From Acidobacteriota bacterium (lineage in GTDB: Bacteria; Acidobacteriota; Vicinamibacteria; Vicinamibacterales; UBA2999), in the NCBI GenBank assembly GCA_030650395.1, contig JAUSDY010000063.1, forward strand, positions 6,855 to 70,854: 64,000 nucleotides of DNA, in the 5' to 3' direction. Under the pieces are notes generated by a model, which searched no databases, was not told the origin of the DNA, and saw only the letters and a program-made list of their open reading frames with translations. Each line of letters starts with the position of its first letter. Position 1 is the first letter of the stretch. Position numbers and translations under genes: made by a program. Below are positions 8,108 to 35,546 of this stretch, in pieces.

Positions 8108-8384
8108 CTATCGCCGTTTCTTCTTCGGCTTGGGCTTGGGCTTGGCTGTCGTTTTTGTCCTCGTCTTGGGCTCTGGCTTGGCGCCCTTGGATTGCGGCTT
8201 TGCCGCAAGCACATCCTGTAGCTCATAGGCCTTGTTGTGGGGACAAACCTTTAGGTTTGTCCTTGACCGGAGCGATGCGCGGCGGAACCGCTTTGAGGAT
8301 GTGTCTGCGCGCGGTGGTATACCGCTCGCCGGTCTTGGCGGCGCGATCGCGAATCAGTTGCTTGAGGGCTCGGGCGCGGGTCAT
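8108..8384 (-). pseudogene. Small basic protein gene split by a 22-nt hairpin element
   Basis: ATG 8384 gives MTRARALKQLIRDRAAKTGERYTTARRHILKAVPPRIAPVKDKPKGLSPQQGL* (stop 8223). Deleting GGACAAACCTAAAGGTTTGTCC joins it in frame to ...NHNKAYELQDVLAAKPQSKGAKPEPKTRTKTTAKPKPKPKKKRR* (stop 8108). Confidence 0.4.
8237..8262 (+). repeat. GTRG-hairpin micro-element A1 (GACAAACC subfamily)
   Basis: GTGG GGACAAACC TTTA GGTTTGTCC; interrupts the small ORF 8108..8384. Confidence 0.85.
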
Positions 8385-8550
8385 AACGGTCCTTCTCTGG
8401 CCACACCACCCCCAGCCCCCGCCTGCTGGCCGCGCGACCGTGAAGAACCCACGTTATTCAGCCCGAGGTGTGGACCCCTTTGCCTCGATCGCAGCCCCGC
8501 GGGGGGAGGCCATGTCGAGGTGAGGCGCCAGGCCAGCGCCAGTCCAAATA

Positions 8551-8586
8551 CTAACAGGAGGTCAGGAGACCAGGAGGAACTTCTTC
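8551..8586 (+). repeat. D-type element D1 (one arm only)
   Basis: CTAACAGGAGGTCAGGAGACCAGGAGGAACTTCTTC; matches the arm and tail of D3. Confidence 0.6.
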
Positions 8587-8589
8587 ATC

Positions 8590-8621
8590 CAAGCCCCCAA
8601 GCCCTCAAGCCCTCAAGCCCT
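8590..8621. repeat. Tandem octamer CAAGCCC(C/T), 4 copies
   Basis: Read directly; 20 nt upstream of the 2Fe-2S subunit start. Confidence 0.8.
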
Positions 8622-8640
8622 CGGGAGTATCATTCCCGGC

Positions 8641-9117
8641 ATGGCCACCATCAATCTGCGGGTGAACGGCAAGGCGCATACGGTTGACGTGGAGCCTTCC
8701 ACTCCCCTGCTCTATGTCCTGCGAAACGATCTGGATTTGTCGGGGCCGCGCTTCGGCTGTGGGCTGGGGCAGTGCGGTGCCTGCACCGTCTTGATCAGGG
8801 GCGAAGCGGTGCGGTCGTGCATCCGCCCGGTGTCGCAGGTGCAGGGCGCTGAAATCACCACGCTCGAAGGCCTCGCGCAAAACGGCAAGCTCCATCCGGT
8901 GCAGCAGGCATGGATCGACGAACAGGTCCCGCAGTGCGGCTTCTGCCAGAACGGGCAAATCCTCACCGCGAAGGTGCTGCTCGACAAGACCCCGAACCCG
9001 ACCGACGCGCAAATCCGCGAGGGCATGCAAGGCGCGTTGTGCCGCTGCATGACGTATTACCGCGTGCAGAAGGCCGTGCGGCTTGCGGCCGACACGATGA
9101 AGGGAGAACGCGCATGA
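8641..9117 (+). CDS. [2Fe-2S]-binding small subunit of a molybdenum hydroxylase (IorA/aldehyde oxidoreductase type)
   Basis: 158 aa; CGLGQCGAC and CGFCQNG...CRC cluster motifs. Confidence 0.9.
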   Translation: MATINLRVNGKAHTVDVEPSTPLLYVLRNDLDLSGPRFGCGLGQCGACTVLIRGEAVRSCIRPVSQVQGAEITTLEGLAQNGKLHPVQQAWIDEQVPQCGFCQNGQILTAKVLLDKTPNPTDAQIREGMQGALCRCMTYYRVQKAVRLAADTMKGERA

Positions 9118-11477
9118 GCTCCCGGCGCGACTTCATCAAATCGTCGGGCATGCTCGTCGTCGGGATTGCAGCGACGAACTCGCTTGCGGATGCATTCGTA
9201 GGGCCCCCCTTTATGGGGGGCCAAAATGCTGCGGGCCCGTATCCCGATCCCGATTTCCACCAGCTCGACTCCTGGATCGTCATCCGCCAGGACAACACCG
9301 CGACGTTCTTCGTCGGCAAGACCGATCTCGGCCAGGGCACCGGCACGGCGTTCCGCCAGATCATGTGCGACGAGCTCGACATCGCGTACGACAAGACCAG
9401 CTGCGTGATGGGCAGCACGCACAACACCGTCGATCAAGGCGGGTCCGGCGGATCCGATGCGTTGCAGACGGATGGCTATCCGATGCGCCGCGTCGCCGCC
9501 GAAGCCCGGCGTGTGTTGCTCGAGATGGGAGCGACCCATTTCGGCGTTCCCGTGTCTGCCCTCGCTGTGAGCGACGGTGTGATCTCCGTGCGTAGAGGCG
9601 GGTCTTTAGACCCGCCTACGCGTGGCGACAAACCTTTAGGTTTGTCGATCACCTACGGCGACCTGATCGGCGGCAGGAAGTTCAACGTCACGTTGACCGG
9701 CCGCAACACCGATGCGACCACGGGCGTTGCGCCGCTCAAGCCGGTGCAGGAGATGAAGAACGTCGGCAAGTCGCCGCAGCGCTACGACATTCCCGCCAAG
9801 GTTGAAGGCTCGCTGAAGTGGGCGGTGGACGTAAAGGCTCCGGGAATGGTCCACGCGCGCAACGTCAAGCCGCCGGTCGCCGGCGCCACGCTCGTCAGCA
9901 TCGACGAAGCGTCGGTGCGCGGGATTCCGGGGTTCATCACAGTGGTGAGCAAAGGCAACTACGTTGCGGTGGTGTGCGAGCGCGAGGAGCAGGCGATCCG
10001 CGCGGCGAGGCAGATCAAGGTCGACTGGAAGAAGCCGGCAACGGCGCCCTTCCCTGCTTCCGACGATCTGTTCACGTACATGCGCGCGGCGTCGCCCTCG
10101 TCTACTGGTAAACCAACTGAAATCGGCGCGACCGATGCCTCGTTCGCCAGTGCGGCCACGGTGATCGAAGCCGAGTACGACGTGCCGTTCCAGGGCCACA
10201 CCGCGATCGGCCCGGCGCATGCGATGGCCGATCCGTCGAACGATCAGCTCACCATCTACACCAACGACATGAAGTCGTACGGCATGCGCAACGGCGTCGC
10301 CGAGTTCCTCAAGATGCCGCGCGACCGCGTCCGCGTCGTCTGGATGGAAGGGCCGCAAGGCTACGGCCGCACCGCGGCGGACGATGCGGGGTTTGAGGCG
10401 GCGTATCTGGCAAAGGAGATCGGCCGTCCGGTGCGGGTGCAGTGGAGCCGGCAGGAAGAAACGGCGTGGGACACCAAGGGTCCGGCGTATGCGTTCAAGA
10501 TGCGCGGCGGCCTCGATGCCCAGGGCAACGTCGTCGCGCTCCACTACGACGCGTGCGCTGCAGATCACAATCATCTTGGCTACAACGAACACGAGACTGT
10601 TCTGATCTCGCAGCTGATGGGCATCCGGAAAGCGACGCCCTCGCCCGGACGTGCGTCGCTGCCGTCGGACATGTACGTGATTCCGAACCGCAAGCAGACG
10701 ACGAGGGTGGTGCCGCTGCCGATGCCGTTCGAGACGCCTCTTCGTACCGGCAACCTGCGCGACCCCGATGGTCCGCAGGTAACGTTTGCGGCGGAGAGCT
10801 TCATCGACGAGCTCGCCGTCGCGGCGAAGGCGGACCCGGTGGCGTTCCGCTTGAAGATGTTGCAGGCGAGCACGGGCGACGACAGCGGCTTCAAGCGCGC
10901 GCGCTCGATCGTGTGCATCAAGGCGGCGGCGGAGAAGTTCGGCTGGGACCCGCGCCCTTCACCGAAGGTGCCAGTTGGTGGAGACAAACCTTTAGGTTTG
11001 TCTGAAGATATTCTCACCGGCCGCGGCATCGCGTATGCGTACCGCAGTCAGACCGTGGTCGCCGAGATCGCCGAGGTCGAGGTCAATCGCAAGACCGGCC
11101 GCGTCTGGGTGAAGCGCCTGGTGATCGCGCACGACTGCGGGCTGGTGATCAACCCGGCCGCGCTCACGCGCGTGATCGAGTGCGGCGCGCTTTATGGTCT
11201 GAGCCGGGCGCTCCACGAGGAAGTGAAGTTCGACACCGAGAAGGTCACGAGCGTGGACTGGGTGACGCATCCGACGCTGACGCATGCGGATACGCCGGAG
11301 CGAATCGATGTGGTGCTGGTGAATGGGGACCCGAACCCGAACCGGCCCGACCTGCAGCACTACGGCGCCGGCGAGACGATGTGCAAGCCGATGCTGGCGG
11401 CGGTGGCGAACGCGGTATTTGATGCGACGGGAACCCGCTTGAGACGCATACCCCTTAGCCTCCCGCGTCCTGTTTGA
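9114..11477 (+). CDS. Molybdopterin-binding large subunit (IorB/aldehyde oxidoreductase type), Tat-exported
   Basis: ATGA overlap with the small subunit; twin-arginine signal SRRDFIKSSG; 787 aa; carries four hairpin inserts (see repeats). Confidence 0.9.
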   Translation: MSSRRDFIKSSGMLVVGIAATNSLADAFVGPPFMGGQNAAGPYPDPDFHQLDSWIVIRQDNTATFFVGKTDLGQGTGTAFRQIMCDELDIAYDKTSCVMGSTHNTVDQGGSGGSDALQTDGYPMRRVAAEARRVLLEMGATHFGVPVSALAVSDGVISVRRGGSLDPPTRGDKPLGLSITYGDLIGGRKFNVTLTGRNTDATTGVAPLKPVQEMKNVGKSPQRYDIPAKVEGSLKWAVDVKAPGMVHARNVKPPVAGATLVSIDEASVRGIPGFITVVSKGNYVAVVCEREEQAIRAARQIKVDWKKPATAPFPASDDLFTYMRAASPSSTGKPTEIGATDASFASAATVIEAEYDVPFQGHTAIGPAHAMADPSNDQLTIYTNDMKSYGMRNGVAEFLKMPRDRVRVVWMEGPQGYGRTAADDAGFEAAYLAKEIGRPVRVQWSRQEETAWDTKGPAYAFKMRGGLDAQGNVVALHYDACAADHNHLGYNEHETVLISQLMGIRKATPSPGRASLPSDMYVIPNRKQTTRVVPLPMPFETPLRTGNLRDPDGPQVTFAAESFIDELAVAAKADPVAFRLKMLQASTGDDSGFKRARSIVCIKAAAEKFGWDPRPSPKVPVGGDKPLGLSEDILTGRGIAYAYRSQTVVAEIAEVEVNRKTGRVWVKRLVIAHDCGLVINPAALTRVIECGALYGLSRALHEEVKFDTEKVTSVDWVTHPTLTHADTPERIDVVLVNGDPNPNRPDLQHYGAGETMCKPMLAAVANAVFDATGTRLRRIPLSLPRPV
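9198..9222 (+). repeat. GTAG-hairpin micro-element A2
   Basis: GTAG GGCCCCCC TTTAT GGGGGGCC; in frame in the Mo-oxidoreductase gene (encodes VGPPFMGG). Confidence 0.85.
9592..9619 (+). repeat. GTAG-hairpin micro-element A3
   Basis: GTAG AGGCGGGTC TTTA GACCCGCCT AC; a GTAG box on both strands; encodes RRGGSLDPPT. Confidence 0.85.
9622..9647 (+). repeat. GTRG-hairpin micro-element A4 (GACAAACC subfamily)
   Basis: GTGG CGACAAACC TTTA GGTTTGTCG, 2 nt after A3; encodes GDKPLGLS. Confidence 0.85.
10978..11003 (+). repeat. GTRG-hairpin micro-element A5 (GACAAACC subfamily)
   Basis: GTGG AGACAAACC TTTA GGTTTGTCT; same frame as A4, again encodes GDKPLGLS. Confidence 0.85.
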
Positions 11478-11478
11478 A

Positions 11479-11967
11479 TCACTGCTTCAACGGTCCCAGA
11501 GGGCTCGGGTCGCACTTGGCTTCGACCGTGTACGCGCCGCCCGCAATCTTCCAGCCCTCATCGGTCTTGATCAGATCGAACGCATCGACGCCGCAGTGGC
11601 TGAACTTGCCGTCGATCCAGAAATCGTACGGCGTCCACAGCGTGGCAATCACGCCGCGGATGCGCACGTCGGGGTTCCATATCCGCTCTCGGCGCGCCGG
11701 CTTGATGCCGGCGAGATCCTTCAGATACTCCTCGTTCGTGACGGTGCGTGTCACCGTCTTGCCGTCCTGCTGACGCACCGCAAAAAGGCGGCCCTCGGCC
11801 ATCAGAGTGCGGCGTGCGCCCGCCACATCCCTAGCGGCCATGGTGTCGAAAAACGCCTGGACCGTCTTGAGCACGGCGTCGCGCTCAGCCGCCGGCGCGG
11901 GCTGGCCCTGTGCGAGCGCAATTCCACCCATATGGACCACCAGCAGCAGAACAAGCACAGCGCGCAT
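11479..11967 (-). CDS. NTF2-fold (SnoaL/DUF4440-like) secreted protein
   Basis: Internal ATG 11967 gives signal peptide MRAVLVLLLVVHMGGIALAQG; VLKTVQAFFDTMAARD... pattern. Confidence 0.7.
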   Translation of the reverse strand: MRAVLVLLLVVHMGGIALAQGQPAPAAERDAVLKTVQAFFDTMAARDVAGARRTLMAEGRLFAVRQQDGKTVTRTVTNEEYLKDLAGIKPARRERIWNPDVRIRGVIATLWTPYDFWIDGKFSHCGVDAFDLIKTDEGWKIAGGAYTVEAKCDPSPLGPLKQ

Positions 11968-12051
11968 CGGCGATTCCTCCGGACGAGAGCTTAACCCGCC
12001 TTCACCCATTGTCGATTTCATCTGGCCTCGAGCGACGTGTAAGTACGTCAG

Positions 12052-12107
12052 AACAGGAACTCAGAAGATCAGGAGAAAGTTTTCTCCTGATCTCGTGGAC
12101 TCCTGTT
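12052..12107. terminator. D-type long hairpin D2 downstream of the PEGA gene
   Basis: AACAGGA actcagaa GATCAGGAGAAA gt TTTCTCCTGATC tcgtggac TCCTGTT; outer 7-bp and inner 12-bp stems; 13 nt after the PEGA stop. Confidence 0.6.
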
Positions 12108-12120
12108 ACTTATCTGGCCG

Positions 12121-13035
12121 TTATGGCGTGATCGTCGTCAGCCGCTTGAGATCGCAGCCGGAGGGCAGCTTGAGATCCTGTGGCGGCACGTTGCCCATGT
12201 AACAACCGGGAATCAGGTACATCGTCCGGCTGCCGCTCGGCGCGGGTGGCGGCGCAAGCGCGGGCGGAGCGGCCGGCGCGGCCGGGAAAACGGGTGGAGG
12301 AACGACGCGCGTCGGCGCGATGCGATCGAGCGTGGCACGATACACGATGGTCCGCTCGGACACGATCTGCGCATCGATCGTCAGCGTCTTGTAACCGGGG
12401 GCGCGAAACTCGATGCGCCTCGAGCCGGGCTGCAGCTCGAGCTCGCCGCCAAGATCGGCCGGCGTGCCGAGGTATGCGCCATCGACGAACACTTGCAGGA
12501 TGTCGGCAGGCTCAACCTCGAGGCGGAGCCGTCCCGTCATCGGTTCCGGCACGACCGTGATCACACCAGGAACGATGGTGCCCTGCGTGACCTGCGTCGA
12601 GGACCCGATGCTGCCCCAAGGGTACGGCTGCCCCACATAGATATACGAGGGGCCCGGCCATGGTCCGAATGGATTGCCAAACCCTCTCTGCTGGCCGTCT
12701 CTCCGCTGATCGTCTCTCTGGCGGCCGTCTCTCTGTTGGCCGTTCTGTTGCCAGCCTTGCTGCTGCCAATCTCTTTGCTGCCACTCTCTCTGTTGCCAGT
12801 CTCGCTGGTGCCCGTCGCGCTGTTGCGGGCCTCGCTGTTGTCCTGTGTTGCCGCGCCTGGATTCATCGGCGGCTCCGCGGGGGGGCAAGCCGATCGACGG
12901 AAGCGGCAAGCCGAGCGAGGGCAACGGCTGGGCAATCGGCGCGACGGCGGATCCCCGCTGAACGGGCGCTACGTACTGCGCCGCGGCAATCGCGGGCACA
13001 CCGAGCAAGGCGAGGACGAGGCAGATGCCGCGCAT
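12121..13035 (-). CDS. Secreted PEGA-domain protein with Q/R/D/W tandem repeats
   Basis: Signal peptide MRGICLVLALLGVPAIAAAQ; LRLEVEPADILQVFVDGAYLGT...IEFRAPGYKTL is a PEGA module; central QQRDWQQREWQQRDWQQQGWQQ repeats. Confidence 0.75.
   Translation of the reverse strand: MRGICLVLALLGVPAIAAAQYVAPVQRGSAVAPIAQPLPSLGLPLPSIGLPPRGAADESRRGNTGQQRGPQQRDGHQRDWQQREWQQRDWQQQGWQQNGQQRDGRQRDDQRRDGQQRGFGNPFGPWPGPSYIYVGQPYPWGSIGSSTQVTQGTIVPGVITVVPEPMTGRLRLEVEPADILQVFVDGAYLGTPADLGGELELQPGSRRIEFRAPGYKTLTIDAQIVSERTIVYRATLDRIAPTRVVPPPVFPAAPAAPPALAPPPAPSGSRTMYLIPGCYMGNVPPQDLKLPSGCDLKRLTTITP
12682..12846 (-). repeat. Imperfect tandem repeats (about 12-15 nt units) encoding the Q/R/D/W-rich segment of the PEGA protein
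   Basis: Read directly: ctgttgccagtctc / ctgctgccaatctc / ctgttggccgttct type units. Confidence 0.7.
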
Positions 13036-13105
13036 GGGTCTTCACCTATTGTGCACCTTTTACACCTGTTTGAACCTCGGCTGTTTGGCCGTGCCAGACT
13101 GGAGC

Positions 13106-15122: not shown

Positions 15123-19763
<4,641 letters not shown>

Positions 19764-25346: not shown

Positions 25347-25369
25347 CGTATGCGTGTACCCTACGCGGC

Positions 25370-26731
25370 ATGTCTTCCGCCAGCTCGGCGCCGCCGAGTG
25401 AATCGCTGGTCCGCGCGATCGGCACGTTCGGGCTCGCCGCCGGGATCATCAACATCACGATCGGCGGCGGCATCTTCCGCCTGCCTGCGAACGTGGCTGA
25501 ATCGCTCGGCGCCGCGGCGCCGATCGCCTATCTCGTCTGCGCCGTTGCGATGGGTTTGATCGTGCTGTGCATCGCCGACGCGGGCAGCCGGGTCTCGCTC
25601 ACCGGCGGGCCGTACGCCTACGTCGGCACGGCGTTCGGGCCGTATGCCGGCTTCATCTCGGGCGTGCTGTTATGGATGCTCGGCACATTCGCGACTGCCG
25701 CGGTGTCAACGGTGCTGGCCTCGAGCCTTGGGCTGCTGATGCCGGCCCTGGCCGGCCGCACGATGGAGATCGCGATCCTGGTGGTCGCCTACGGTTTCTG
25801 GTCGCTCATCAACCTGCGCGGGGTCACACTCGGCGTGCGGCTCAATTCGATCGCGACGGTGGCGAAGCTGCTGCCGCTGTTGCTGGTGGCAATCGGCGGA
25901 GCGTTCTTCGTGCAGAGCGAGAACCTGCGCATCGTGTCGATGCCCGCGGCGGCGGACGTCGCTCGCACCTCACTGCTGTTGATCTTCGCCTTCGCGGGGA
26001 TCGAATGCGCGCTCGTGCCGAGCGGCGAAGTGCGCGACACCGCGCGCACGGTTCCGCGCGCGATCGCGCTTGCCATGCTCGGCATCACCGCGCTCTACGT
26101 GGCGCTGCAAGTGGTGGCGCAGGGCATTCTTGGCAGCGGCCTCGCGCACGCCACCGTGTCGCCGCTCGCCGACGCCGCCGGCGCTTCACTCGGCGGCTGG
26201 GCACGCTCACTCTTGCTCGCCGGTGCGACCGTCTCGATGTTCGGCTACCTGGGCGGCATGACGCTCTCGATGCCGCGAATGCTGTTCGCACTCGCCCGCG
26301 ACGGCTTCCTGCCGCGCGCGCTGGCGTCGGTGCACCCGGTGCATCGCTCACCCCAGGCCGCCATCATCGCGCAGTCGCTTCTCGCGCTCGTGTTGGCCAT
26401 CTCCGGCACGTTCGAGAAACTCGCCATCCTCGCCAACGTCTCGGCGCTGGCGCTGTATTTCGGCTGCGCGCTGGCGTCGTGGCGGCTTCGTCAGCTCGGC
26501 GTGAGCGGCCCTTCGACTCGTTCCCGCCCCTTTCGGGGCGGGACCTCGCTCAGGGCAGGCGACGTGGTGCCATGGCTGGCGTGCGCCGTGATCGTGTGGC
26601 TGCTTACCGGCCTGACGCGCGACGAGTGGCTCGGCTTCGGCGTGTGCCTTGCGGCCGGAACGCTGGTGTATTTCTTGGCACGTTCGCGGAAGTTTAGTTC
26701 CGCGATCGACAGCAATAGAATGCAGGGATGA
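25370..26731 (+). CDS. APC-superfamily amino acid permease
   Basis: 453 aa, about 12 hydrophobic segments; C-terminal tail carries two repeat inserts. Confidence 0.85.
   Translation: MSSASSAPPSESLVRAIGTFGLAAGIINITIGGGIFRLPANVAESLGAAAPIAYLVCAVAMGLIVLCIADAGSRVSLTGGPYAYVGTAFGPYAGFISGVLLWMLGTFATAAVSTVLASSLGLLMPALAGRTMEIAILVVAYGFWSLINLRGVTLGVRLNSIATVAKLLPLLLVAIGGAFFVQSENLRIVSMPAAADVARTSLLLIFAFAGIECALVPSGEVRDTARTVPRAIALAMLGITALYVALQVVAQGILGSGLAHATVSPLADAAGASLGGWARSLLLAGATVSMFGYLGGMTLSMPRMLFALARDGFLPRALASVHPVHRSPQAAIIAQSLLALVLAISGTFEKLAILANVSALALYFGCALASWRLRQLGVSGPSTRSRPFRGGTSLRAGDVVPWLACAVIVWLLTGLTRDEWLGFGVCLAAGTLVYFLARSRKFSSAIDSNRMQG
26509..26561 (+). repeat. 53-nt composite GC-rich element B1
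   Basis: CCCTTCGACTCG tt CCCGCCCC tttc GGGGCGGG ACCTCGCTCAGGGCAGGCG; in frame in the permease (GPSTRSRPFRGGTSLRAG). Confidence 0.8.
26685..26704. repeat. Hairpin micro-element A10 (CGCGGAA subfamily, degenerate GTAG box)
   Basis: CGCGGAA GTTTAG TTCCGCG; in frame in the permease tail (SRKFSSA). Confidence 0.7.
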
Positions 26732-27717
26732 CTTCAACGCTCCCGATCCTGAAGACCGAGGATGTGCTGGAGGCCCTGCGCGGCCTCAGGACACGCCAGC
26801 CGGTCAAATACTGGGCTTTTTACTCCAGCCAGCTCGGTGGCATCGTCACCGACCCGGCGCTGATGGTGTTGCCGTTCGACGACCACATGGTCCATCGCGG
26901 GCACGGCATCTTCGACACCGCGGCGATCGTCGGCGGCAAGCTTTACGACCTCGACGCTCACCTCGACCGCTTCATCGCATCGGCCGAGCGTTCCAAGCTT
27001 CGCTTGCCGGGCACGCGCCAGCAAATGCGCGACATCATCATGGCCACCGCCGCTGCCAGCGGCAAACCCGACGGCGGCATCCGCTACTGGCTTTCATCCG
27101 GGCCCGGCAGTCTCGATCTCACCCCGGCCGCCGGCGCGGATCCCGGGTTCTTCGTCATGATCTTCGCCGGCCTCTCGTACCCCGAACGTTGGTACAACGA
27201 GGGGCTCAAGGTGATGACGACGACGTACCCGATCAAGCCGGCGCTCTACGCGATCACCAAAAGCACGAACTATCTGCCCAACGTGCTGATGCAGATGGAA
27301 GCGAAAGAAGTCGGTCTCGATAACGGCGTCTTCATCGACAAGGACGGCTTCATCGGCGAGAGCTCGAACATGAACGTGGCGTTCGTCACGCAGGACGGCG
27401 TGTTCCGCCATCCGAAGTTCGATCAGATCCTGTCGGGCTGCACGTCCAAGCGGCTGCTCGAGCTCGCGCCCCGATTGGTGGAGCGCGGTCTCATCAAAGG
27501 CGTTGAGGTCTGCGACATCCCGGTCGCCGACGCGCGCGCCGCGCGGGAGATGATGCTGTTCGGCAGCTCGATCAAGGTGGCGCCGATCGTCGAGTGGGAC
27601 AAGAAGCCGATCCACGACGGCAAGCCCGGACCGGTATCGAAGGCGCTACTCGAGCTGCTCGAGGAAGACATGCGGACGACGAGTCAGGGCCGGCTGGTCG
27701 ATCTGGGCACCCCATAA
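26728..27717 (+). CDS. Class IV (fold-type IV) aminotransferase
   Basis: 329 aa; HRGHGIFDT, NYLPNVLMQMEAKEVG, ESSNMNVAFV motifs; ATGA overlap with the permease; stop codon lies in a hairpin loop. Confidence 0.85.
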   Translation: MTSTLPILKTEDVLEALRGLRTRQPVKYWAFYSSQLGGIVTDPALMVLPFDDHMVHRGHGIFDTAAIVGGKLYDLDAHLDRFIASAERSKLRLPGTRQQMRDIIMATAAASGKPDGGIRYWLSSGPGSLDLTPAAGADPGFFVMIFAGLSYPERWYNEGLKVMTTTYPIKPALYAITKSTNYLPNVLMQMEAKEVGLDNGVFIDKDGFIGESSNMNVAFVTQDGVFRHPKFDQILSGCTSKRLLELAPRLVERGLIKGVEVCDIPVADARAAREMMLFGSSIKVAPIVEWDKKPIHDGKPGPVSKALLELLEEDMRTTSQGRLVDLGTP

Positions 27718-27730
27718 AGGGGTGCCCTAC
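27706..27730 (-). repeat. GTAG-hairpin micro-element A12
   Basis: + strand GGCACCCC ATAAA GGGGTGCC CTAC; the loop TAA (27715-27717) is the aminotransferase stop codon. Confidence 0.85.
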
Positions 27731-27734
27731 ATCG

Positions 27735-28040
27735 TTATTTCCCCAGCTCGACGATCGTGATGGCGTTCCAGTCGTTCATCGGAATCACCAGGCGATTGCG
27801 CTTCGAGTCGTAGGTCATCGACGCCGCGCTTGGAATGCCGGAAGCAATAATCTCCGCCTTCTGCCCCGGGCGGATGCGCGACACGGTGCCCTGCCGCACG
27901 CTGCTGACGTACTTGGTGCCGTCGGGAACGATGACGAGGCCATCGTTACCGGCGTCGACTGCCTGCTCGGTCGCCAGCAGCTTGCCGTCGGGCGAAAACG
28001 TCAGGACGTCGTTGGATCCTTGGATGACGACCGATCGATC
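27735..28040 (-). pseudogene. C-terminal fragment of a beta-propeller protein (SMP-30/NHL-like)
   Basis: Only the last ~100 codons of track ORF 27735..28232 look protein-like (VVIQGSNDVLTFSPDGKLLATE...NRLVIPMNDWNAITIVELGK); upstream part is a shadow of the neighbouring frame. Confidence 0.4.
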
Positions 28041-28759: not shown

Positions 28760-28776
28760 GCCGGTGAGCCGATCGA

Positions 28777-28788
28777 GGGGTGCCCTAC
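28777..28788 (-). repeat. Half element A13 (right arm plus GTAG box only)
   Basis: + strand GGGGTGCC CTAC with no left arm; CTA (28785-28787) is the complement of the truncated pilT stop TAG. Confidence 0.6.
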
Positions 28789-29597: not shown

Positions 29598-29615
29598 AGT
29601 CGGAGCGTTAGCTTA

Positions 29616-29668
29616 CCCTTCGACTCGATCCCGCCGCTATAGCGGCGGGATCTCGCTCAGGGCAGGCG
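29616..29668 (+). repeat. 53-nt composite GC-rich element B2
   Basis: CCCTTCGACTCG at CCCGCCGC tata GCGGCGGG ATCTCGCTCAGGGCAGGCG; intergenic; 47/53 identical to B1 with a compensated stem change. Confidence 0.8.
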
Positions 29669-29774
29669 CTCCCCTCAGAGCAGGCCGATCGCAAAAAACA
29701 GGCCGAAAAGCACGACGAGATTCGGCGGATGTTCGAGGCGGAGCTGGCGGGATTGCGGAAGACGGGAGGACACG

Positions 29775-30674
29775 GTGAGTGATCCGTTCATCATCGAGAC
29801 GGCCGGACTCCACAAGAACTACGACGGTATCGAAGCGCTGCGCGGCCTGACCCTCCAGGTGCCGGCTGGCTCGATCTTCGGGTTCCTGGGCAGAAACGGC
29901 GCCGGCAAGACGACGACGATCAAGATCCTGCTCGGCCTGGCAAAGCCGACCAGCGGCAAGGCGCACGTCTTCGGGCTCGATGCCGACGATCAGGCGGCGA
30001 GCGTCGCGATCCGACGCCGCACGGCGTTTGTCAGCGACGAAAAGGATCTCTACGACTACATGACCGTGGGCGAGATGATTCGGTTCACCGCCTCCTTCTT
30101 CCCGAAATGGCGCGCCGACATGGAGGAGCGGCAACTGCGCCGCTTCGACTTGCGACGCGAGCGGCCGATCAAAGGACTGTCGCGCGGCATGCGCACCAAG
30201 CTTTCGCTGCTGCTCGCGCTGTGCCGCGGCGCCGAGCTGCTGATCCTCGATGAGCCGACCTCGGGCCTCGACCCCGTCGTGACCGAAGAGGTGCTGCAGG
30301 CGCTCGTCTCCGGCGTGGCCGGCGAAGCGATGACAGTGTTCTTCTCGTCGCACCAGATTAGCGAGGTCGATCAAATCGCCGATCACGTCGCGATCATCGA
30401 TCGCGGGCAGTTGGCGATCTCGGGTGCGCTCGACGACCTGCGCCAGAATTATCGGCGCATCCAACTGGTCTTCGAGGGCGACGCGCCGAACGTCAAGTTC
30501 CACCCCGCCGGCGTCAGGCGCGTGCAGCGCAAGGGCCGCGTCCTCACGATTCTCTCCAGTGCCGGGACCGAGCAAATCCTGGACGAAGCCAAACGCTACC
30601 GTCCCGTCTCGATCGACGTCGTCCCCGTCACGCTGAAAGACATTTTTCTCGAAACCGTTGCCGCGGAGGACTGA
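29775..30674 (+). CDS. ABC transporter ATP-binding protein
   Basis: GTG start 4 nt after GGGAGGA; Walker A GRNGAGKTT, signature LSRGMRTKLSL, Walker B LLILDEPTSGLD. Confidence 0.9.
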   Translation: MSDPFIIETAGLHKNYDGIEALRGLTLQVPAGSIFGFLGRNGAGKTTTIKILLGLAKPTSGKAHVFGLDADDQAASVAIRRRTAFVSDEKDLYDYMTVGEMIRFTASFFPKWRADMEERQLRRFDLRRERPIKGLSRGMRTKLSLLLALCRGAELLILDEPTSGLDPVVTEEVLQALVSGVAGEAMTVFFSSHQISEVDQIADHVAIIDRGQLAISGALDDLRQNYRRIQLVFEGDAPNVKFHPAGVRRVQRKGRVLTILSSAGTEQILDEAKRYRPVSIDVVPVTLKDIFLETVAAED

Positions 30675-30675
30675 C

Positions 30676-31368
30676 ATGGTCTGGTACAAATCGTGGCTCG
30701 AAACCCGGTGGCGGTTCCTGATCGGCCTGGGAGTGCTGACGCTGCTCGCCTGCGGCGCCGTCTTCGGTTACCCGGCCGTGCAGGAGCTGATGCCCATCGC
30801 GGAGCAAGTGGAGGCGAAGGGTCCAATCGCACAGATTATCAAGGACGCGATTGAGGTGCAGCGCCAGTATCGCGGCTACGTCTGGTATCAATGGGTCCGG
30901 CAGAACCTAACGCAGACGTGGACGATCTTCGCGATCCTGCTCGGCAGCGGAGGGCTGCTGGCGCACGCGTCCGGAGGAGCGCCGCTCTTCACGCTCGCGC
31001 TGCCCGTTTCGCGTCAACAGGTGTTGTGGGTCCGGGCCGCAACAGGTCTCGCGGAGCTGTTGGTGCTCGCGATCGTCCCCTACCTGATCTTTCCTGTGTT
31101 GTCGCCGGCGATCGCTCAGCACTACAGCCTCCGCGATGTCGCTGTGCATGCCACGTGCATCTTCGTCGGCGGCTCGGTGTTCTTCAGCGTCGCGTTGTTT
31201 CTTTCGACGATGTTCAGTGATATCTGGCGGCCGTTGCTGATCACGTGCGCAGTGGCTGTGATGTTGATGCTGATCGAACGGATCCCCGGGGAGTTCTACG
31301 GCATCTTCGGGATCATGAGCGGCGATTCCTATTTCGCGGTGGCGCGGTGCCGTGGGCCGGTCTGCTGA
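30676..31368 (+). CDS. ABC-2-type permease, apparent frameshift near its 3' end
   Basis: MVWYKSWLETRWRFLIGLG... with about 6 hydrophobic segments; after ...GIMSGDSYF the plausible continuation (RGGAVPWAGLLTSATVSAGILYGAATNFARQDF*) is in another frame up to 31436. Confidence 0.65.
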   Translation: MVWYKSWLETRWRFLIGLGVLTLLACGAVFGYPAVQELMPIAEQVEAKGPIAQIIKDAIEVQRQYRGYVWYQWVRQNLTQTWTIFAILLGSGGLLAHASGGAPLFTLALPVSRQQVLWVRAATGLAELLVLAIVPYLIFPVLSPAIAQHYSLRDVAVHATCIFVGGSVFFSVALFLSTMFSDIWRPLLITCAVAVMLMLIERIPGEFYGIFGIMSGDSYFAVARCRGPVC

Positions 31369-31451
31369 CGAGTGCCACGGTGTCGGCGGGGATTTTATAC
31401 GGCGCCGCCACTAATTTCGCCCGGCAGGATTTCTAACGCGCACAGGACAGC

Positions 31452-31475
31452 GTAGCGCGGAACTTTAGTTCCGCG
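31452..31475 (+). repeat. GTAG-hairpin micro-element A11
   Basis: GTAG CGCGGAAC TTTA GTTCCGCG; the complement of loop positions 31465-31467 is the ArsR stop TAA. Confidence 0.85.
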
Positions 31476-31854
31476 GTTTGCAGAAACTCGCGTCAGTCCT
31501 GTTGCCCTTCTCGACAAACCCCTTCAAGCGGCCGAGTGCCTCGTCCCACTGGCACGACATCTGCTCGAGAAAACGACGCGCTTCGTCCAGCCGGTCGGCC
31601 TCGACGTTCCAGATGCGCTCCCGTCCCAGCCTGGCGCTGCGGACGAGTCCGGCGGCGCCGAGAACCTGCAGATGCTTCGTAATGGCCTGCCGGGTCACTG
31701 CGGCCCCCGCGGCCAGCTGGGCGATCGAATGGGGGCCCGCCGAACCAAGACGCAGGACCAGCGCGAGCCGCGTTTCGTCGCCAAGGGCGGCGAAGAGGGG
31801 CGCGGCATGCGCGAAGCCGGCAGGCTTGACAGCCCGGCGCGGCTTGCGGCTCAA
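31465..31854 (-). CDS. ArsR/SmtB-family transcriptional regulator
   Basis: LFAALGDETRLALVLRL...HSIAQLAAGAAVTRQAITKHLQVLGAAGLV winged HTH; TTG start overlapping the upstream stop (cgTTGAgc); stop codon lies in a hairpin loop. Confidence 0.8.
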   Translation of the reverse strand: MSRKPRRAVKPAGFAHAAPLFAALGDETRLALVLRLGSAGPHSIAQLAAGAAVTRQAITKHLQVLGAAGLVRSARLGRERIWNVEADRLDEARRFLEQMSCQWDEALGRLKGFVEKGNRTDASFCKPRN

Positions 31855-32315
31855 CGGGCGCCCGCCCGACTGGTGACGTAACGATCGATGTTCTTGAGCT
31901 GCTCGGTCCATCCTCCCTCGTTCATGCGGAAGGCCGTGTCCCGGCGAGCGGCCGGAATCTGATCGAAACCCGACTCCACCACCGTGAGGCGTGTGCCCTC
32001 GGCGACTTCGTCCAGGCGGAACTCGACGAGCGTTGTGGGCTCGCTCGAGTAATCCACGCCAGGTTCGATGGCATAGGGATGCCAGCGGTACGCGAACACG
32101 CGCTCCGGCTCGACCCGTTCGATCTGCATCGTGAGCGTAAAGTGCTCGTAGCCGGGTGTCGTGATCGGGCCGGAGATCTGCGCGCCCGGAACGAACGCTC
32201 CCGTAACCTTGGCGCCGAACCAGGCTCCGAAATCCTCGGCAGTGGTAATCGCGCGCCAGACCTGCGATCGGGGCGCGCGGATCACCGTGGTTTTCTGGAT
32301 GCGGTCTGAGCTCAT
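31851..32315 (-). CDS. SRPBCC (Aha1-domain) protein
   Basis: MSSDRIQKTTVIRAPRSQVWRAIT...FGAWFG pattern; ATG at 32315 preferred over the TTG at 32321. Confidence 0.8.
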   Translation of the reverse strand: MSSDRIQKTTVIRAPRSQVWRAITTAEDFGAWFGAKVTGAFVPGAQISGPITTPGYEHFTLTMQIERVEPERVFAYRWHPYAIEPGVDYSSEPTTLVEFRLDEVAEGTRLTVVESGFDQIPAARRDTAFRMNEGGWTEQLKNIDRYVTSRAGAR

Positions 32316-32316
32316 A

Positions 32317-32334
32317 TGCAACCTCTTGGTTGCA
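32317..32334. promoter_or_regulatory. Operator-like palindrome TGCAACC-tctt-GGTTGCA
   Basis: Perfect 7-4-7 palindrome abutting the SRPBCC start codon. Confidence 0.55.
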
Positions 32335-32358
32335 CTTTACCGCCGCGCGACCGTCTAA

Positions 32359-32376
32359 TGCAACCATTTGGTTGCA
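32359..32376. promoter_or_regulatory. Operator-like palindrome TGCAACC-attt-GGTTGCA
   Basis: Second identical-arm palindrome 42 bp from the first, same intergenic region. Confidence 0.55.
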
Positions 32377-32384
32377 CGATAACT

Positions 32385-33716
32385 TCAGCGGATCCGCCAG
32401 CCGTTGACCGGCCCGCCGTGGAAGAACGCCGCCGGCGTCATCACGCCGTCTTTCTTGAACACCATCCCGTCCTTCATCACGAACTGGACGTTCTTCAACG
32501 CATTCAGGTCATCGAGCGGGTTGCCGGGAAGGGCGATGATGTCGGCAAAGAATCCCGCCTTGATCGGTCCCCGTGTAGTCTCCGTCTCGCTAAGCTTGTA
32601 GCCGTTGATCGTCATCGCGCGCAGCGTGTCGGCATTGGGGATCGCGGCATCGATCCACGTCTTGAGGAATTCCATGCACAACTCGCCGCGGGTCTTGCCG
32701 GGCACCCAGTAGTCGGCATCGGTGGAAAAGGTCAGCGGCACCTTGTTGGCAAACGCGTTCTTCAGGCCGGCGACCGTGCGCTCGTAGGCTTGCGCCGAAA
32801 CCGGATGGCCTTCGAGGCCCGGCGGCGTTTCGGTGCCGGCGCGGAAGATACCTTTCTGCGCCATCAGCTTGTGGAACTCGTCGGTGAGCGCGCCCGAGTG
32901 CGCGATCGACCAGATGCCGGCCTCAATCGCATTGCGGGCGCCGTTCTGCGTCTGGACGTGCCCTTCGACCTTCATCCCCGACTTGGCCGCCTCGCGGATC
33001 ACCAGCCGGATCTCATCCGCGGTGTACCCGTACGGCTTGCAATCGACGCAGATCTTGATCACCTTCGCCCCGAACAGGACGTTCTGGCGGATCGCCTTCA
33101 CGATCTCATCCGCCGTGTCGGCGTCGAGGTACTCCGGATAGACGATGTTGTGATCGGTGACCATTTCGGGCGTCGGAAAGAACTGCCCGCCCATGCCGCC
33201 GATGATGATGCCGGAGTTGATGATCGTCGGCCCGGGGATCCAGCCCTGCTCGATCGCCTGCCGCAGCGCGGTGTCGGCGTAGAGGGCGTTGTTGCCCATG
33301 TCGCGGACGATCGTGAATCCGGACGCCAGCATCTGGATGCCGTTCGACGCCGCCTGGATGGCGCGCAGCGCCGTCGATTCCTGCACGTAGGTGTAGTAGT
33401 AAACGTTGTTCTCGGGCACCGGCTTGTAGGTGAGCGCGAGGTGGTTGTGCGCCTCGACGAGCCCGGGCATCACGGTCATCGCCGACAGGTCGATCACTTG
33501 CGCGCCCGGCGGAATCGCCAGGTTTGGTCCGACGTCGCGGATGCGCGTGCCCTCGACGAGGATGATCTGATTGGTGAGGATTCGTCCCGCTTCGGGATCG
33601 AGCAAGCGGCCGGCGCGAATGGCGGTGACGGGCGCGGGCGCCTGTGCACGGACGCCATCGCCGAAGAGTAAACAGGCACAAATAACCAATAACGAATTGC
33701 GAATAACCAAGTTCAT
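32385..33716 (-). CDS. Secreted amidohydrolase-family metallohydrolase
   Basis: Internal ATG 33716 gives signal peptide MNLVIRNSLLVICACLLFGDGVRAQA; MPGLVEAHNHL HxH motif. Confidence 0.85.
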   Translation of the reverse strand: MNLVIRNSLLVICACLLFGDGVRAQAPAPVTAIRAGRLLDPEAGRILTNQIILVEGTRIRDVGPNLAIPPGAQVIDLSAMTVMPGLVEAHNHLALTYKPVPENNVYYYTYVQESTALRAIQAASNGIQMLASGFTIVRDMGNNALYADTALRQAIEQGWIPGPTIINSGIIIGGMGGQFFPTPEMVTDHNIVYPEYLDADTADEIVKAIRQNVLFGAKVIKICVDCKPYGYTADEIRLVIREAAKSGMKVEGHVQTQNGARNAIEAGIWSIAHSGALTDEFHKLMAQKGIFRAGTETPPGLEGHPVSAQAYERTVAGLKNAFANKVPLTFSTDADYWVPGKTRGELCMEFLKTWIDAAIPNADTLRAMTINGYKLSETETTRGPIKAGFFADIIALPGNPLDDLNALKNVQFVMKDGMVFKKDGVMTPAAFFHGGPVNGWRIR

Positions 33717-33767
33717 CTCCCTTCCAGAGGTCGCCATTATGAGGCTTCATCAAGTATTGTGCGCGGT

Positions 33768-35546
33768 ATGAAGAACCTCAGCCTTCGGACAAACCTAAAG
33801 GTTTGTCCCCACATCGTGACGCTCGTCCTGATGGGGGGCGCCCTGCTGTCGGCGCGCCAACTGCAACCGCCGCCCCCGCCGGTAGCGGCACCGATGCCTG
33901 CGCTGCTGAAGAGCTACACGGCAGTCACGGCCGAACGGTTGAAGAGTCCAGCAGACGCGGACTGGCTGATGATTCGGCGCAGCTACGACGGGTGGGGCTA
34001 CAGCCCGCTCGATCAGATCACGCCGGCCAACATCTCCCGGCTGCAGCCGGCGTGGGTGTTTTCAACCGGCGTGAACAGCGGGCACGAGGCGCCGCCGATC
34101 GTCAACAACGGCGTGATGTTCGTCTCGACGCCGGGTCACCGCGTCACCGCCCTCGATGCCAGGACCGGTGTGATGCTGTGGCGCTACATCAAGGAAGTCG
34201 CCGATCCGATCGTCGCACCGCATCCCACGACGCGCGGCATCGCGCTCTACGGCGACAAGGTGTTCTTCGCCGCCAACGATGCGGTGCTGGTCGCGCTCGA
34301 CGCCAGGACCGGCACGCAGCTGTGGACCGCCACCGTCGCCGACAACAAGAGCGGCTACTACATGACGCTGGCGCCGCTCGTCGCCGACGGCAAGGTGATG
34401 GTCGGCGTGTCGGGAGGCGAGCTCGGGGTGCGCGGCTTCATCGCCGCCTACGATCCCGACAGCGGCAAGCAAGTGTGGAAGACCTACACCGTGCCCGCGC
34501 CCGGTGAGCCAGGCAGCGAGACGTGGCCGAACGGCAACCAGTGGAGAACCGGCGGCGCACCGGTGTGGGTCACCGGCAATTACGATCCGCAAACCAATCT
34601 CGCCTTCTGGGGCACCGGCAACGGTGGACCGTGGATGGGCGATCAGCGGCCCGGCGACAATCTCTATACCGCGTCGGTCGTCGCCGTCGATGCCGCCACC
34701 GGGCGCATCAAAGGCCACCATCAATATCATCCGAACGATTCGTGGGATTGGGACGAGGTCTCGCCGCCGATCCTGGTCGATTACCAGCGTAACGGCCGCA
34801 CCATCAAGGGCCTGATCGACGTCGCGCGTAACGGCTATCTGTGGTTCCTGGAGCGCACCGACGGCGCGATCAACTTCGTCGAAGGCACGCCGTTCGTCAG
34901 GCAGAACGTGTTCAGGAGCCTTGACCCGAAGACCGGACGGCCCGACGTGGATCCGGCGCGCAAGCCCGGCACCGGCAAGACCGCGGATTTCTGCCCGTCA
35001 CATTGGGGCGGCAAGAACTGGCCGCCGATTGCGTACAGCCCGAAGACGCGGCTGATCTACATCCCCGCCAACGAGAACCTGTGCGGCACGCTGGTCGGCC
35101 GTGACGTCGCGTACACGCCAGGCAGCGGCTATACCGGCGCGACGAGCACATTGGTCATCACCCCCGGCGCCGACCATATCGGCGAAGTGCAAGCGTGGAA
35201 CGTCGACACCGGCAAGCGAGTGTGGACGCACAATTATCCGAAGTCGGCGAACTGGGGACCGATGCTCGCCACCGGCGGCGGGCTCGCATTTACCGGCGGT
35301 ACCAACGATCGGATGTTTCACGCGTTCGACGCGTCGACCGGCAAGCTGTTGTGGGAGTTTCCAACCAACTCCGGCATCACCGGCCAGCCTTCGTCGTTCA
35401 TGGTCGACGGCAAGCAGTACATCGCCGTGATGTCGGGCTGGGGCGTCGACGCCAGGGCGGTGCAGCTCCGGCTCAACCGGTTGATGCCGGGTGATTACCC
35501 GGAGGTGCCCGAGGGCGGGGCGATCTGGGTCTTCGCGATCAAATAA
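33768..35546 (+). CDS. PQQ-dependent alcohol dehydrogenase (methanol/ethanol family)
   Basis: Eight-bladed quinoprotein pattern (repeated ALDARTG..LW / A.D..TGK..W motifs); NDSWDWDE active-site segment; signal-peptide region contains a hairpin element; ATG 33768 preferred to GTG 33759. Confidence 0.88.
   Translation: MKNLSLRTNLKVCPHIVTLVLMGGALLSARQLQPPPPPVAAPMPALLKSYTAVTAERLKSPADADWLMIRRSYDGWGYSPLDQITPANISRLQPAWVFSTGVNSGHEAPPIVNNGVMFVSTPGHRVTALDARTGVMLWRYIKEVADPIVAPHPTTRGIALYGDKVFFAANDAVLVALDARTGTQLWTATVADNKSGYYMTLAPLVADGKVMVGVSGGELGVRGFIAAYDPDSGKQVWKTYTVPAPGEPGSETWPNGNQWRTGGAPVWVTGNYDPQTNLAFWGTGNGGPWMGDQRPGDNLYTASVVAVDAATGRIKGHHQYHPNDSWDWDEVSPPILVDYQRNGRTIKGLIDVARNGYLWFLERTDGAINFVEGTPFVRQNVFRSLDPKTGRPDVDPARKPGTGKTADFCPSHWGGKNWPPIAYSPKTRLIYIPANENLCGTLVGRDVAYTPGSGYTGATSTLVITPGADHIGEVQAWNVDTGKRVWTHNYPKSANWGPMLATGGGLAFTGGTNDRMFHAFDASTGKLLWEFPTNSGITGQPSSFMVDGKQYIAVMSGWGVDARAVQLRLNRLMPGDYPEVPEGGAIWVFAIK
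33787..33812 (-). repeat. GTRG-hairpin micro-element A14 (GACAAACC subfamily)
   Basis: + strand GGACAAACC TAAA GGTTTGTCC CCAC; in frame in the n-region of the PQQ-ADH signal peptide (RTNLKVCPH). Confidence 0.85.

Follow-up and report, generated by a model that had tools for sequence, protein, structure and literature searches.

The 64,000-nucleotide stretch analysed here as a whole (the window; 64.8% G+C), taken from contig JAUSDY010000063.1 of an Acidobacteriota bacterium of the order Vicinamibacterales, carries a family of short hairpins that resemble repetitive extragenic palindromic (REP) elements and that lie, for the most part, within genes. The genes that host or adjoin these hairpins, modelled from third-position G+C (GC3) together with Pfam and PDB matches, encode the large subunit of a molybdenum (Mo) oxidoreductase, Mug of the uracil-DNA glycosylase family, the glutamate synthase subunits GltD and GltB, an amino-acid permease, a class-IV aminotransferase, an ArsR-type regulator and a pyrroloquinoline quinone (PQQ)-dependent dehydrogenase (ADH). 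Related Mo-oxidoreductase and GltD proteins are labelled Vicinamibacterales. Taking the evidence below together, we consider it probable that this is a family of GTAG-tagged REPs whose in-frame copies are translated as short protein loops.

The window was searched in three ways: exhaustively for perfect hairpins, with relaxed criteria in the neighbourhood of TTTA loops, and, with filters disabled, by a covariance model (CM) trained on 20 real copies. All three gave the same set of 13 copies, made up of 12 clear ones (CM E<0.06) and one degenerate one (Table 1). The preliminary description of this DNA had counted 14 copies; 13 of them are borne out and the fourteenth is not, the next candidates being chance matches at 19245-19275, where the match overlaps the conserved gltB codons 'RRLYIIRK', and at 57252-57272. 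The shared layout, 24-26 nt long, starts with GT(A/G)G and a stem of 8-9 bp, continues with a 4-5-nt loop (TTTA, TTTAT or TTTTA) and closes with the complementary stem. The tag stands directly before the stem in 12 of the 13 copies (GTAG in eight, GTGG in four) and has been lost at 26680, where an 8-bp stem is nevertheless kept. Perfect GTRG-tagged hairpins of the TTTA type number 11 in the window, compared with a mean of 0.01 untagged and no tagged hairpins in 100 dinucleotide shuffles. The predicted single-stranded DNA folding energy of the copies is -6 to -11 kcal/mol, identical 26-mers recur at unrelated sites within the window, and the hairpins match no family in Rfam. Between subfamilies both arms are changed at 8 of 9 stem pairs and 100% of cells are paired, in a test that is circular, since perfect hairpins were preselected, and that compares paralogous copies. 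The claim that arm differences are compensated holds for the subfamilies, as paralogous masters, and does not on its own prove that the hairpin is selected in place. A GT(A/G)G tag 5' of a palindrome, and a stable stem-loop of 20-40 nt with a stem of ~6-9 bp whose subfamilies differ by paired changes, are both features of GTAG-type REPs, and the family, which is found well beyond the window, appears to be one of them.

Table 1. Hairpin copies in the window. Sequences are written as tag-stem-loop-stem on the strand given; the CM penalises the 5-nt loop of the 9198 copy.
Position	Strand	Sequence	Location and encoded residues	CM score
8237-8262	+	GTGG-GGACAAACC-TTTA-GGTTTGTCC	truncated-gene remnant (- strand, 8226-8384); antisense reading DKPKGLSP	43.1 bits, E 2.4e-10
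9198-9222	+	GTAG-GGCCCCCC-TTTAT-GGGGGGCC	Mo-oxidoreductase large subunit, residues 97-105, VGPPFMGGQ, directly past the twin-arginine signal	E 0.053
9592-9617	+	GTAG-AGGCGGGTC-TTTA-GACCCGCCT	Mo-oxidoreductase, residues 228-236, RRGGSLDPP	36.6 bits
9622-9647	+	GTGG-CGACAAACC-TTTA-GGTTTGTCG	Mo-oxidoreductase, residues 238-246, GDKPLGLS; 4 nt past the 9592 copy, direct orientation	41.7 bits
10978-11003	+	GTGG-AGACAAACC-TTTA-GGTTTGTCT	Mo-oxidoreductase, residues 690-698, GDKPLGLS	42.4 bits
13118-13142	-	GTAG-GGCACCCC-TTTTA-GGGGTGCC	5' end of mug: N-terminal tail or leader	23 bits
14230-14253	-	GTAG-AGCGGAGC-TTTA-GCTCCGCT	gltD, residues 278-285, VERSFSSA, sense	29.5 bits
16009-16033	-	GTAG-GGCGCCCC-TTTAT-GGGGCGCC	gltB, residues 1244-1252, SRAPLYGAP, sense	21.1 bits
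17322-17345	-	GTAG-CGTGGAAC-TTTA-GTTCCGCG, one stem mismatch	gltB, residues 807-817 (with 17313-17321)	20.1 bits
17313-17321	-	9-nt duplicate of the right arm of the 17322 copy	gltB	
26680-26705	+	degenerate, CGCGGAAC subfamily, ACGT-TCGCGGAAG-TTTA-GTTCCGCGA	amino-acid permease C-terminal tail, residues 437-446 of 453	12.7 bits, E 0.27
27705-27730	-	GTAG-GGCACCCC-TTTAT-GGGGTGCC(C)	spacer of convergent genes	25.1 bits
31452-31475	+	GTAG-CGCGGAAC-TTTA-GTTCCGCG	between convergent genes	29 bits
33787-33812	-	GTGG-GGACAAACC-TTTA-GGTTTGTCC	5' end of the PQQ-dependent dehydrogenase (ADH) gene	43.1 bits

Seven copies lie deep inside conserved coding sequence (CDS), four in the Mo-oxidoreductase gene, two in gltB and one in gltD; all seven are in sense orientation, in frame and stop-free, and each adds 8-10 residues. 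All other copies internal to open reading frames (ORFs) in the window are likewise stop-free and keep the frame. The earlier observation that most copies sit in frame within ORFs is upheld. Three further copies stand at gene 3' ends (26680, 27705 and 31452), and in two of these the TAA of the loop is a stop codon. At 27705 it ends the class-IV aminotransferase gene (26728-27717), whose protein closes with ...DLGTP* inside the element, the ORF convergent with it ending at 27735; at 31452 the loop, read on the - strand, supplies the TAA of the ArsR-type regulator gene (Pfam HTH_20; ...CKPRN* at 31465). These two copies are in the ordinary REP position. The 26680 copy lies beyond the Pfam AA_permease match, which ends near residue 375.

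For two other copies, in mug and ADH, the N-termini are uncertain and coding status depends on the start codon. Homology to E. coli Mug begins at ORF residue 43, directly past the 13118 element, and the 33787 copy would encode residues 10-18 (RTNLKVCPH) of a putative signal peptide from the upstream start or lie in the leader of the downstream one, the Pfam PQQ match beginning at residue 69. The remnant gene around 8237 corresponds to the first 52 codons of a gene whose 255-residue orthologue, in the related locus L091 (769-1536; loci fetched for comparison are given by our own L numbers), carries the same element in frame. Homology between the window and L091 stops at 8230 and the remnant ORF stops directly past the element, and a rearrangement or deletion breakpoint therefore coincides with it. 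The statement that no copy is cleanly intergenic was thus too strong, as between three and six of the 13 are at gene ends, in leaders or in the gene remnant, and the family is common between genes in relatives. All the same, a predominantly extragenic location, the usual REP feature, does not describe the window, where two or three copies (27705, 31452 and, near a 3' end, 26680) compare with seven deep in CDS. Extragenic location is a descriptive rather than a mechanistic feature of REPs, and published exceptions exist.

Comparison with orthologues and with solved structures indicates that the elements are insertions and not ancestral residues. In the best 120 Mo-oxidoreductase homologues (78-100% identity), three loops vary by the presence or absence of REP-encoded peptides (VGPPFMGGQ, RRGG(S/L)DPP, GDKPLGLS, GGNPLGLP and RRAGALAPA), and the same loop holds different REP subfamilies in different lineages. 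The 9198 element is identical in L001 and missing from L091 and L092, giving a net +24 nt in the window. The 9592 site is empty in the closest relative, L001 (94% amino-acid identity), and in most of the best 120 homologues, and the copy aligns to a gap against PDB 8gy3_C; the neighbouring 9622 copy is held in common with L001 at 26 of 26 positions and does not occur in L088-L092. At 10978 both the window and L091 have an element and L001 and L092 have an empty site (net +30 nt), and this loop is a hot spot that carries different REP subfamilies and arrays in other homologues, with loop 3 of protein P0110 containing an in-frame array translated as GGGNPSGTGGGNPAGIGGGNPQGIGGGNPLGLP. An AlphaFold (AF2) model of the Mo-oxidoreductase, of poor quality (mean predicted local distance difference test score 55.5) and used for secondary-structure placement alone, puts all four inserts in coil that separates secondary-structure elements predicted with confidence.

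The glutamate synthase genes give a similar picture; their orthologues were reached through L091 and through gltD homologues, synteny not being conserved in L088-L090. Among the best 120 GltD homologues only the window gene has the insert, the three closest (89-90% identity) being without it, and site 14230 shows a net +30 nt relative to L174 and a gap against PDB 7mfm_I. Both gltB elements, by contrast with the gltD one, are also present in L174, at 85.6% overall DNA identity, and are therefore older. At 16009 (site 2) the hairpin is identical in L174 at 21 of 21 positions, with GAAG for a tag there, and faces 9-10-residue gaps in the B. subtilis and Azospirillum GltB structures. At 17322 (site 1) the L174 element is intact, with a TTCA loop where the window has TTTA and with no arm duplication, and a 19-residue gap is seen against B. 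subtilis GltA. The intragenic positions in gltB, gltD and the Mo-oxidoreductase gene are all alignment gaps against solved GltB, GltD and aldehyde-dehydrogenase (ALDH) structures. Furthermore, the mug 5' site has two adjacent copies in L173 (3880-3947), none in L174 and a shortened remnant in L091, and the gltB-gltD spacer of L174 contains, at the gltB stop codon, a copy (4894-4917) that the window does not have, so that presence and absence between the window and its relatives L173 and L174 differ in both directions. Alignments, filled and empty DNA sites and structure gaps all agree in this check, proposed in the preliminary description, against orthologues that lack the extra residues. A further variable gltB loop, unrelated to the GTAG family, is found in the N-terminal domain, where L174 has a (GGGCTCC)x4 run at the equivalent of window positions 19274-19288; the window sequence differs there and is 15 nt longer.

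These comparisons also bear on the idea that the elements are an assembly or sequencing artefact, or that GDKPLGLS is a peptide motif selected at the protein level. The source is indeed a short-read metagenome-assembled genome (MAG), and GDKPLGLS does recur; but the same elements occupy orthologous positions in independent JGI, ENA and NCBI assemblies, and they also occur in non-coding DNA, in both orientations, in several frames that give different peptides and in unrelated proteins. We regard both versions of this idea as extremely unlikely.

A 26-nt copy offers two stop-free frames per orientation. Sense copies in ORFs use the frame xGDKPLGLS 17 times and WRQTFRFV once, and antisense copies use DKPKGLSP 10 times and TNLKVCRH once, so that the G/D/K/P-rich frame is taken in 27 of 29 intragenic copies; because the element is palindromic, the favoured peptides are nearly alike in both orientations. 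A decay variant, GDKPSGSS, is found in frame in ~30 Mo-oxidoreductase homologues, and frame-breaking copies are absent from intact genes. Taken together, the preference for one frame, the lack of copies that break the frame in intact genes and the decay variants that stay in frame argue that intragenic copies are translated and filtered by selection for loop-compatible sequence. Orientation in ORFs is skewed towards sense (23 versus 12 antisense), a bias that is not significant on its own.

Stable hairpins within CDS, mostly in sense orientation, might alternatively go untranslated, either by removal from the mRNA or by ribosome bypass of the kind seen in T4 gene 60 and the mitochondrial 'byp' elements. 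In bypass elements, however, frame and stops are unconstrained within the insert, and this does not hold for the intragenic copies: those deep in genes are in frame and stop-free, as are antisense copies, and the frame preference, the in-frame decay variants and the in-frame arrays would be needless if the segment were skipped. Bypass or removal is accordingly very improbable.

If intragenic copies are translated, the following account may be proposed. The hairpins would be copies of a GTAG/GTGG-tagged REP family, REPs being short non-autonomous hairpins that spread by copy-and-paste from a few master sequences, each giving rise to a subfamily. By analogy with other GTAG REPs, they would probably be moved by a transposase of the HUH/Y1 class, a REP-associated tyrosine transposase (RAYT) encoded elsewhere in the genome, which would recognise the tag together with the single-stranded DNA hairpin; recognition of a GTAG tag plus hairpin has reportedly been demonstrated for such an enzyme. 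In the Vicinamibacterales-like lineage many insertions have landed in coding DNA, and the coding copies that persist would be those that add a multiple of three bases, that present a stop-free frame encoding a short peptide rich in Gly, Pro, Asp, Lys and Ser (sense GDKPLGLS, antisense DKPKGLSP, VGPPFMGG or RRGGSLDPP) and that fall in surface loops, linkers or termini, where translation would turn them into loops of 8-10 additional residues. At gene ends, copies would act like ordinary REPs, sometimes donating a stop codon. The family itself, its excess over chance, its spread, its patchy occurrence among orthologues and its frame and peptide bias are shown by the data, whereas we infer the transposase, the occurrence of translation and the near-neutrality of the inserts for the host protein.

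We then consider how far the family extends. A scan of one genome per species with GTRGNGACAAACCTTTAGGTTTGTC, which represents one subfamily alone, identified at least 86 loci, most of them in MAGs of Vicinamibacterales/Acidobacteriota with 61-70% G+C and 22 of them on 14 contigs of a single MAG. The exact element is also present in loci of ~40-51% G+C from two Nitrospirae MAGs, one Ignavibacteria MAG (L067) and one Dehalococcoidia MAG (L002), the Nitrospirae or unlabelled loci of ~40-44% GC being L008, L011, L020, L021, L056, L058, L071, L073, L082 and L084, as well as in an Opitutaceae MAG (L072) and a Sulfopaludibacter MAG, both high-GC. The identical 26-nt element thus occurs in MAGs of at least five phyla spanning 40-69% GC. 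This points either to movement of the element or its mobiliser between phyla or to contamination of some bins; contamination by Acidobacteria is disfavoured because the flanks of the low-GC loci are themselves ~40% GC.

The settings of the element differ with the host. In low-GC hosts it is intergenic and forms inverted doublets with the tags outward and an 11-17 nt spacer, within a repeated unit of ~105 nt, the GACAAACC arm being paired with the GACAGACC arm across the spacer. These doublets, in Nitrospirae, Ignavibacteria and Dehalococcoidia loci, have the layout of a REPIN, an inverted REP doublet that serves as the mobile unit. The preliminary identification of the copies as REP-like GTAG hairpins is therefore supported by the tag, the hairpin, the excess over shuffled sequence and this layout. 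In high-GC loci copies occupy intergenic DNA, form tandem arrays of whole or half elements (L017, L022 and L068) or lie inside long high-GC3 ORFs, the last setting comprising 35 of 106 copies under a deliberately strict test. The tandem arrays, (GTGGCGACAAACCTTYA)n of 17-18 nt, lie at ~2490-2700 in L068, 1904-2128 in L017 and 2510-2575 and 3910-3969 in L022, and hairpins seem to seed short coding repeats by slippage. Among relatives fetched by gene homology 8 of 13 copies are inside called genes, in a sample biased towards the genes that host elements in the window. Copy density in relatives is 0-2 per 7-22 kb locus (0-3 per 10 kb), and the window has 13 in 64 kb.

Several observations weigh against the simplest form of the account given above, in which a RAYT moves a fixed unit. 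First, tblastn with 11 queries from RAYTs and from terminal-inverted-repeat tyrosine transposases (TIRYTs), together with a search by a hidden Markov model (HMM) made from the same published sequences, detected no RAYT/Y1 gene in the window and 92 related loci (~0.77 Mb), in agreement with the earlier report of no RAYT/IS200-type gene in the window; a miss in 0.77 Mb over more than 15 genomes is to be expected, however, because a RAYT is a single-copy gene and these genomes are thinly sampled. Second, net insertion sizes (+24, +30 and +30 nt) differ from element lengths (25, 26 and 24 nt) and flanks are remodelled, while the flanks of 123 copies revealed no target-site consensus or duplication and the filled/empty junctions are irregular; such sizes and junctions would not be expected if Y1 cut-and-paste moved a fixed unit precisely. 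Third, the half-element arrays and the 9-nt arm duplication in gltB suggest slippage and fit poorly with simple precise transposition. Fourth, window copies are singletons or direct neighbours (9592/9622), with no inverted doublets and hence no REPIN layout. Finally, all 13 copies fall within 25.6 kb (8.2-33.8 kb; p~1e-4 for 13 points on 64 kb), the filters-off CM search having found none in 1-8236 or 33813-64000, the other 38 kb; simple random transposition does not account for such clustering, for which local hopping or regional tolerance is possible. A chimeric contig was considered as a cause of the clustering and rejected, as neither GC content nor tetranucleotide composition changes along the window.

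Some of these observations could favour spread by a route other than a RAYT, such as a different HUH/IS200-like enzyme on a broad-host-range element, hairpin-mediated template switching or slippage, or recombination between copies. The negative RAYT search, the irregular junctions with no fixed unit length, the arrays with the arm duplication and the synteny break at the edge of the 8237 copy are all in line with this possibility. In addition, REPIN-RAYT systems are described in two sources (bioRxiv 10.1101/2022.05.22.493013; PMC5581495) as usually vertically inherited and lineage-specific, and an identical 26-mer in at least five phyla contrasts with that pattern. On the other hand, the GTAG tag together with a hairpin of 8-9 bp and, in low-GC hosts, inverted doublets is the signature of a RAYT substrate (for GTAG plus hairpin as RAYT substrate, see PMC3733652), the doublets in particular fitting the substrate model; a single-copy RAYT would be expected to be missed in 0.77 Mb; and slippage cannot put identical 26-mers at unrelated loci. 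We therefore judge a non-RAYT route unlikely, and retain a RAYT as the probable mobiliser.

Enzymes that might be comparable are present elsewhere in the phylum. A metagenome scan with an alignment of acidobacterial Y1 transposases listed 80 Terriglobia-type loci, none of which carries the window hairpin family. On the flanks of some of these IS200-like Y1 genes, which come from soil and peat metagenomes, lie other GTGG/GTAG hairpins (L094, 2014-2766; L096, 2685-2840; L101, 1041-1167; and L136, L152 and L169, near 3754-3781 or 672-691), for example GTGG-CCCAGGTCTC-GCGTTT-GAGACCTGGG and GT(A/G)G-AGCGGACA-CTCA-TGTCCGCT, so that systems of this kind exist in the phylum Acidobacteria. We note that this Y1 group had been classed with unrelated terminal inverted repeats, and not with REPs (PMC3733652).

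A separate question is whether the hairpins, once inserted, are kept for a function of their own. At ~9 orthologous filled sites the identity of the element is 0.81-1.00 and that of the flanking 200 nt is 0.54-0.91; element identity is 0.96-1.00 at all of these sites but one (L065 2849 versus L044, 0.81), and in L046/L049/L052 the element matches at 26 of 26 positions against ~0.55-0.60 for the flanks. Such conservation might stem from selection acting on the hairpin, from conversion of one copy by another or from repeated insertion at the site. Hairpins of mobile origin might thus be retained by selection for a DNA or RNA stem-loop, acting in mRNA stabilisation or decay, in transcriptional or translational pausing, or as a protein-binding or topological site, a proposal that overlaps the explanation by translated GTAG REPs and adds a function to it. 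The element is more conserved than its flanks in the window as well, in comparison with L001 and L091; the gltB site-2 hairpin is unchanged in L174 despite 85.6% DNA identity overall; and sense copies are commoner than antisense ones. Against this, retention is not universal, presence being patchy among close relatives and several copies having decayed (GDKPSGSS in ~30 homologues, the mismatch at 17322, tag loss at 26680 and in L174, and the L091 remnant); gene conversion or repeated re-insertion could also preserve identity, and the sense bias does not reach significance alone. Selection for a stem-loop function is therefore doubtful, although it has some chance of being correct, and we treat hairpin function as a live but unproven addition to the explanation by translated REPs.

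Going further, one may tentatively envisage a REP family that has become adapted to coding sequence, that is a major, recurrent source of loop insertions and of short repeat arrays in the otherwise highly conserved enzymes of Vicinamibacterales, whose hairpin is under selection and whose element or mobiliser crosses phyla. The palindromic element would yield nearly the same flexible Gly/Asp/Lys/Pro peptide in either orientation, and hairpin selection is suggested by identity at orthologous sites while flanks diverge by 10-45%. This extended proposal, too, is more doubtful than not.

The usual view places REPs outside genes by definition, and software for annotation and repeat detection confines its search for them to intergenic DNA. 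In the present case one GTAG family would lengthen glutamate synthase, a molybdoenzyme and further proteins by 8-10 residues at a time, through repeated and independent insertions into the same loops across a widespread, little-cultured clade of soil and freshwater bacteria. The elements would thereby form a measurable source of indel variation in protein loops, and they confound orthologue alignment and MAG gene calling through spurious N-termini, donated stops and truncations. The system may also offer a way of finding out whether selection maintains REP hairpins or hosts just tolerate them, and the identical 26-mer in five phyla bears on the strict vertical inheritance of REP-RAYT systems.

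Other features of the window stand apart from the GTAG family. A second palindromic family, with the core CAGGAGAAA-N3-TTTCTCCTG, stems of 12-17 bp and similar flanks (ACAGGAA...TCCTGTT), has copies at 12066-12093 and 35555-35591; they lie past gene 3' ends, one of them between convergent genes, and are probably terminators or another repeat family, one that lacks a GTAG tag. Two copies of TGCAACC-N4-GGTTGCA (32317-32334 and 32359-32376), 42 nt apart, lie directly upstream of the ArsR-type regulator gene and adjoin a - strand gene (32385-33737); they look like paired operator sites. The sole Rfam match in the window is a tRNA gene on the - strand (2468-2538; RF00005, 58.9 bits).

Of the systems already described, the closest is that of Opitutus terrae. 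Di Nocera 2013 (BMC Genomics 14:522, PMC3733652) defined the GTAG and CGTC REP superfamilies and reported in-frame GTAG REPs contained wholly within ORFs, most numerously in O. terrae (~70 ORFs), with several other species also represented, including genes hit twice, REP-donated stop codons and the GTGG tag variant, although most REPs were intergenic. The view that REPs are extragenic by definition, from which the preliminary description had started, is therefore not supported, and the Rickettsia palindromic element (RPE), which it had offered as the closest precedent, is not the only one. The O. terrae elements are like the present ones in having a tag, GTAG or, in one O. terrae family, mostly GTGG, and a palindrome with a 6-9 bp stem, in lying in frame, singly or in groups, in housekeeping ORFs where they encode 7-10 Gly/Pro/Ala/Val-rich residues, and in that some genes are hit twice and some copies give stops; a further link is the Opitutaceae MAG that carries the present 26-mer. 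They belong, however, to another sequence family in another phylum, none of their listed REP-encoded peptides matches the present one, the present exact element spans several phyla, and the ORF-internal share here is 7-10 of 13 in the window and at least one third in related loci. For Acidobacteria, the same survey gave solely Y1 genes with unrelated terminal inverted repeats (Koribacter versatilis) and no GTAG REP families (PMC3733652).

The REP/REPIN-RAYT systems of Enterobacteria and Pseudomonas (Nunvar 2010; Bertels & Rainey 2011; Messing 2012; Ton-Hoang 2012) likewise combine a 5' GTAG with a 20-40 nt hairpin, many dispersed copies and compensated-stem subfamilies, and the inverted doublets seen here in low-GC hosts have their counterpart there. 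There, REPs lie almost wholly outside genes, usually on their 3' side, are restricted to a lineage and have a known, REP-flanked RAYT, whereas the window copies are singlets, mostly in ORFs, and no RAYT was found in the window and the 92 related loci. The SMAG elements of Stenotrophomonas maltophilia (Rocco 2010; GTAG-6 to -9) are also GTAG hairpins, of 22-25 nt, in a high-GC genome, with stem subfamilies and a few copies inside ORFs, but they are overwhelmingly intergenic, differ in stem and loop sequence and have associated RAYT genes. RPEs (Ogata et al. 2000) are palindromic, inserted in frame in functional genes and tolerated in surface regions, as here; yet RPE-1 is ~100-150 nt long, the short RPE-4 and RPE-6 belong to the CGTC-tagged superfamily (PMC3733652) and the hosts of RPEs are AT-rich, obligately intracellular alphaproteobacteria, whereas the present elements are of 24-26 nt with GTAG and have free-living high-GC bacteria as hosts. 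The present family is thus not a member of the RPEs and has behaviour alone in common with them.

A search of the later REP surveys and the Vicinamibacteria literature that were available returned no description of the present hairpin family. In-frame intragenic REPs have been published before, and what appears to be new is the repeat family and the phylum. In comparison with the systems above, the family is unusual quantitatively, in its high ORF-internal share, in its recurrent hits in the same loops of core enzymes and in the presence of an identical element in several phyla.

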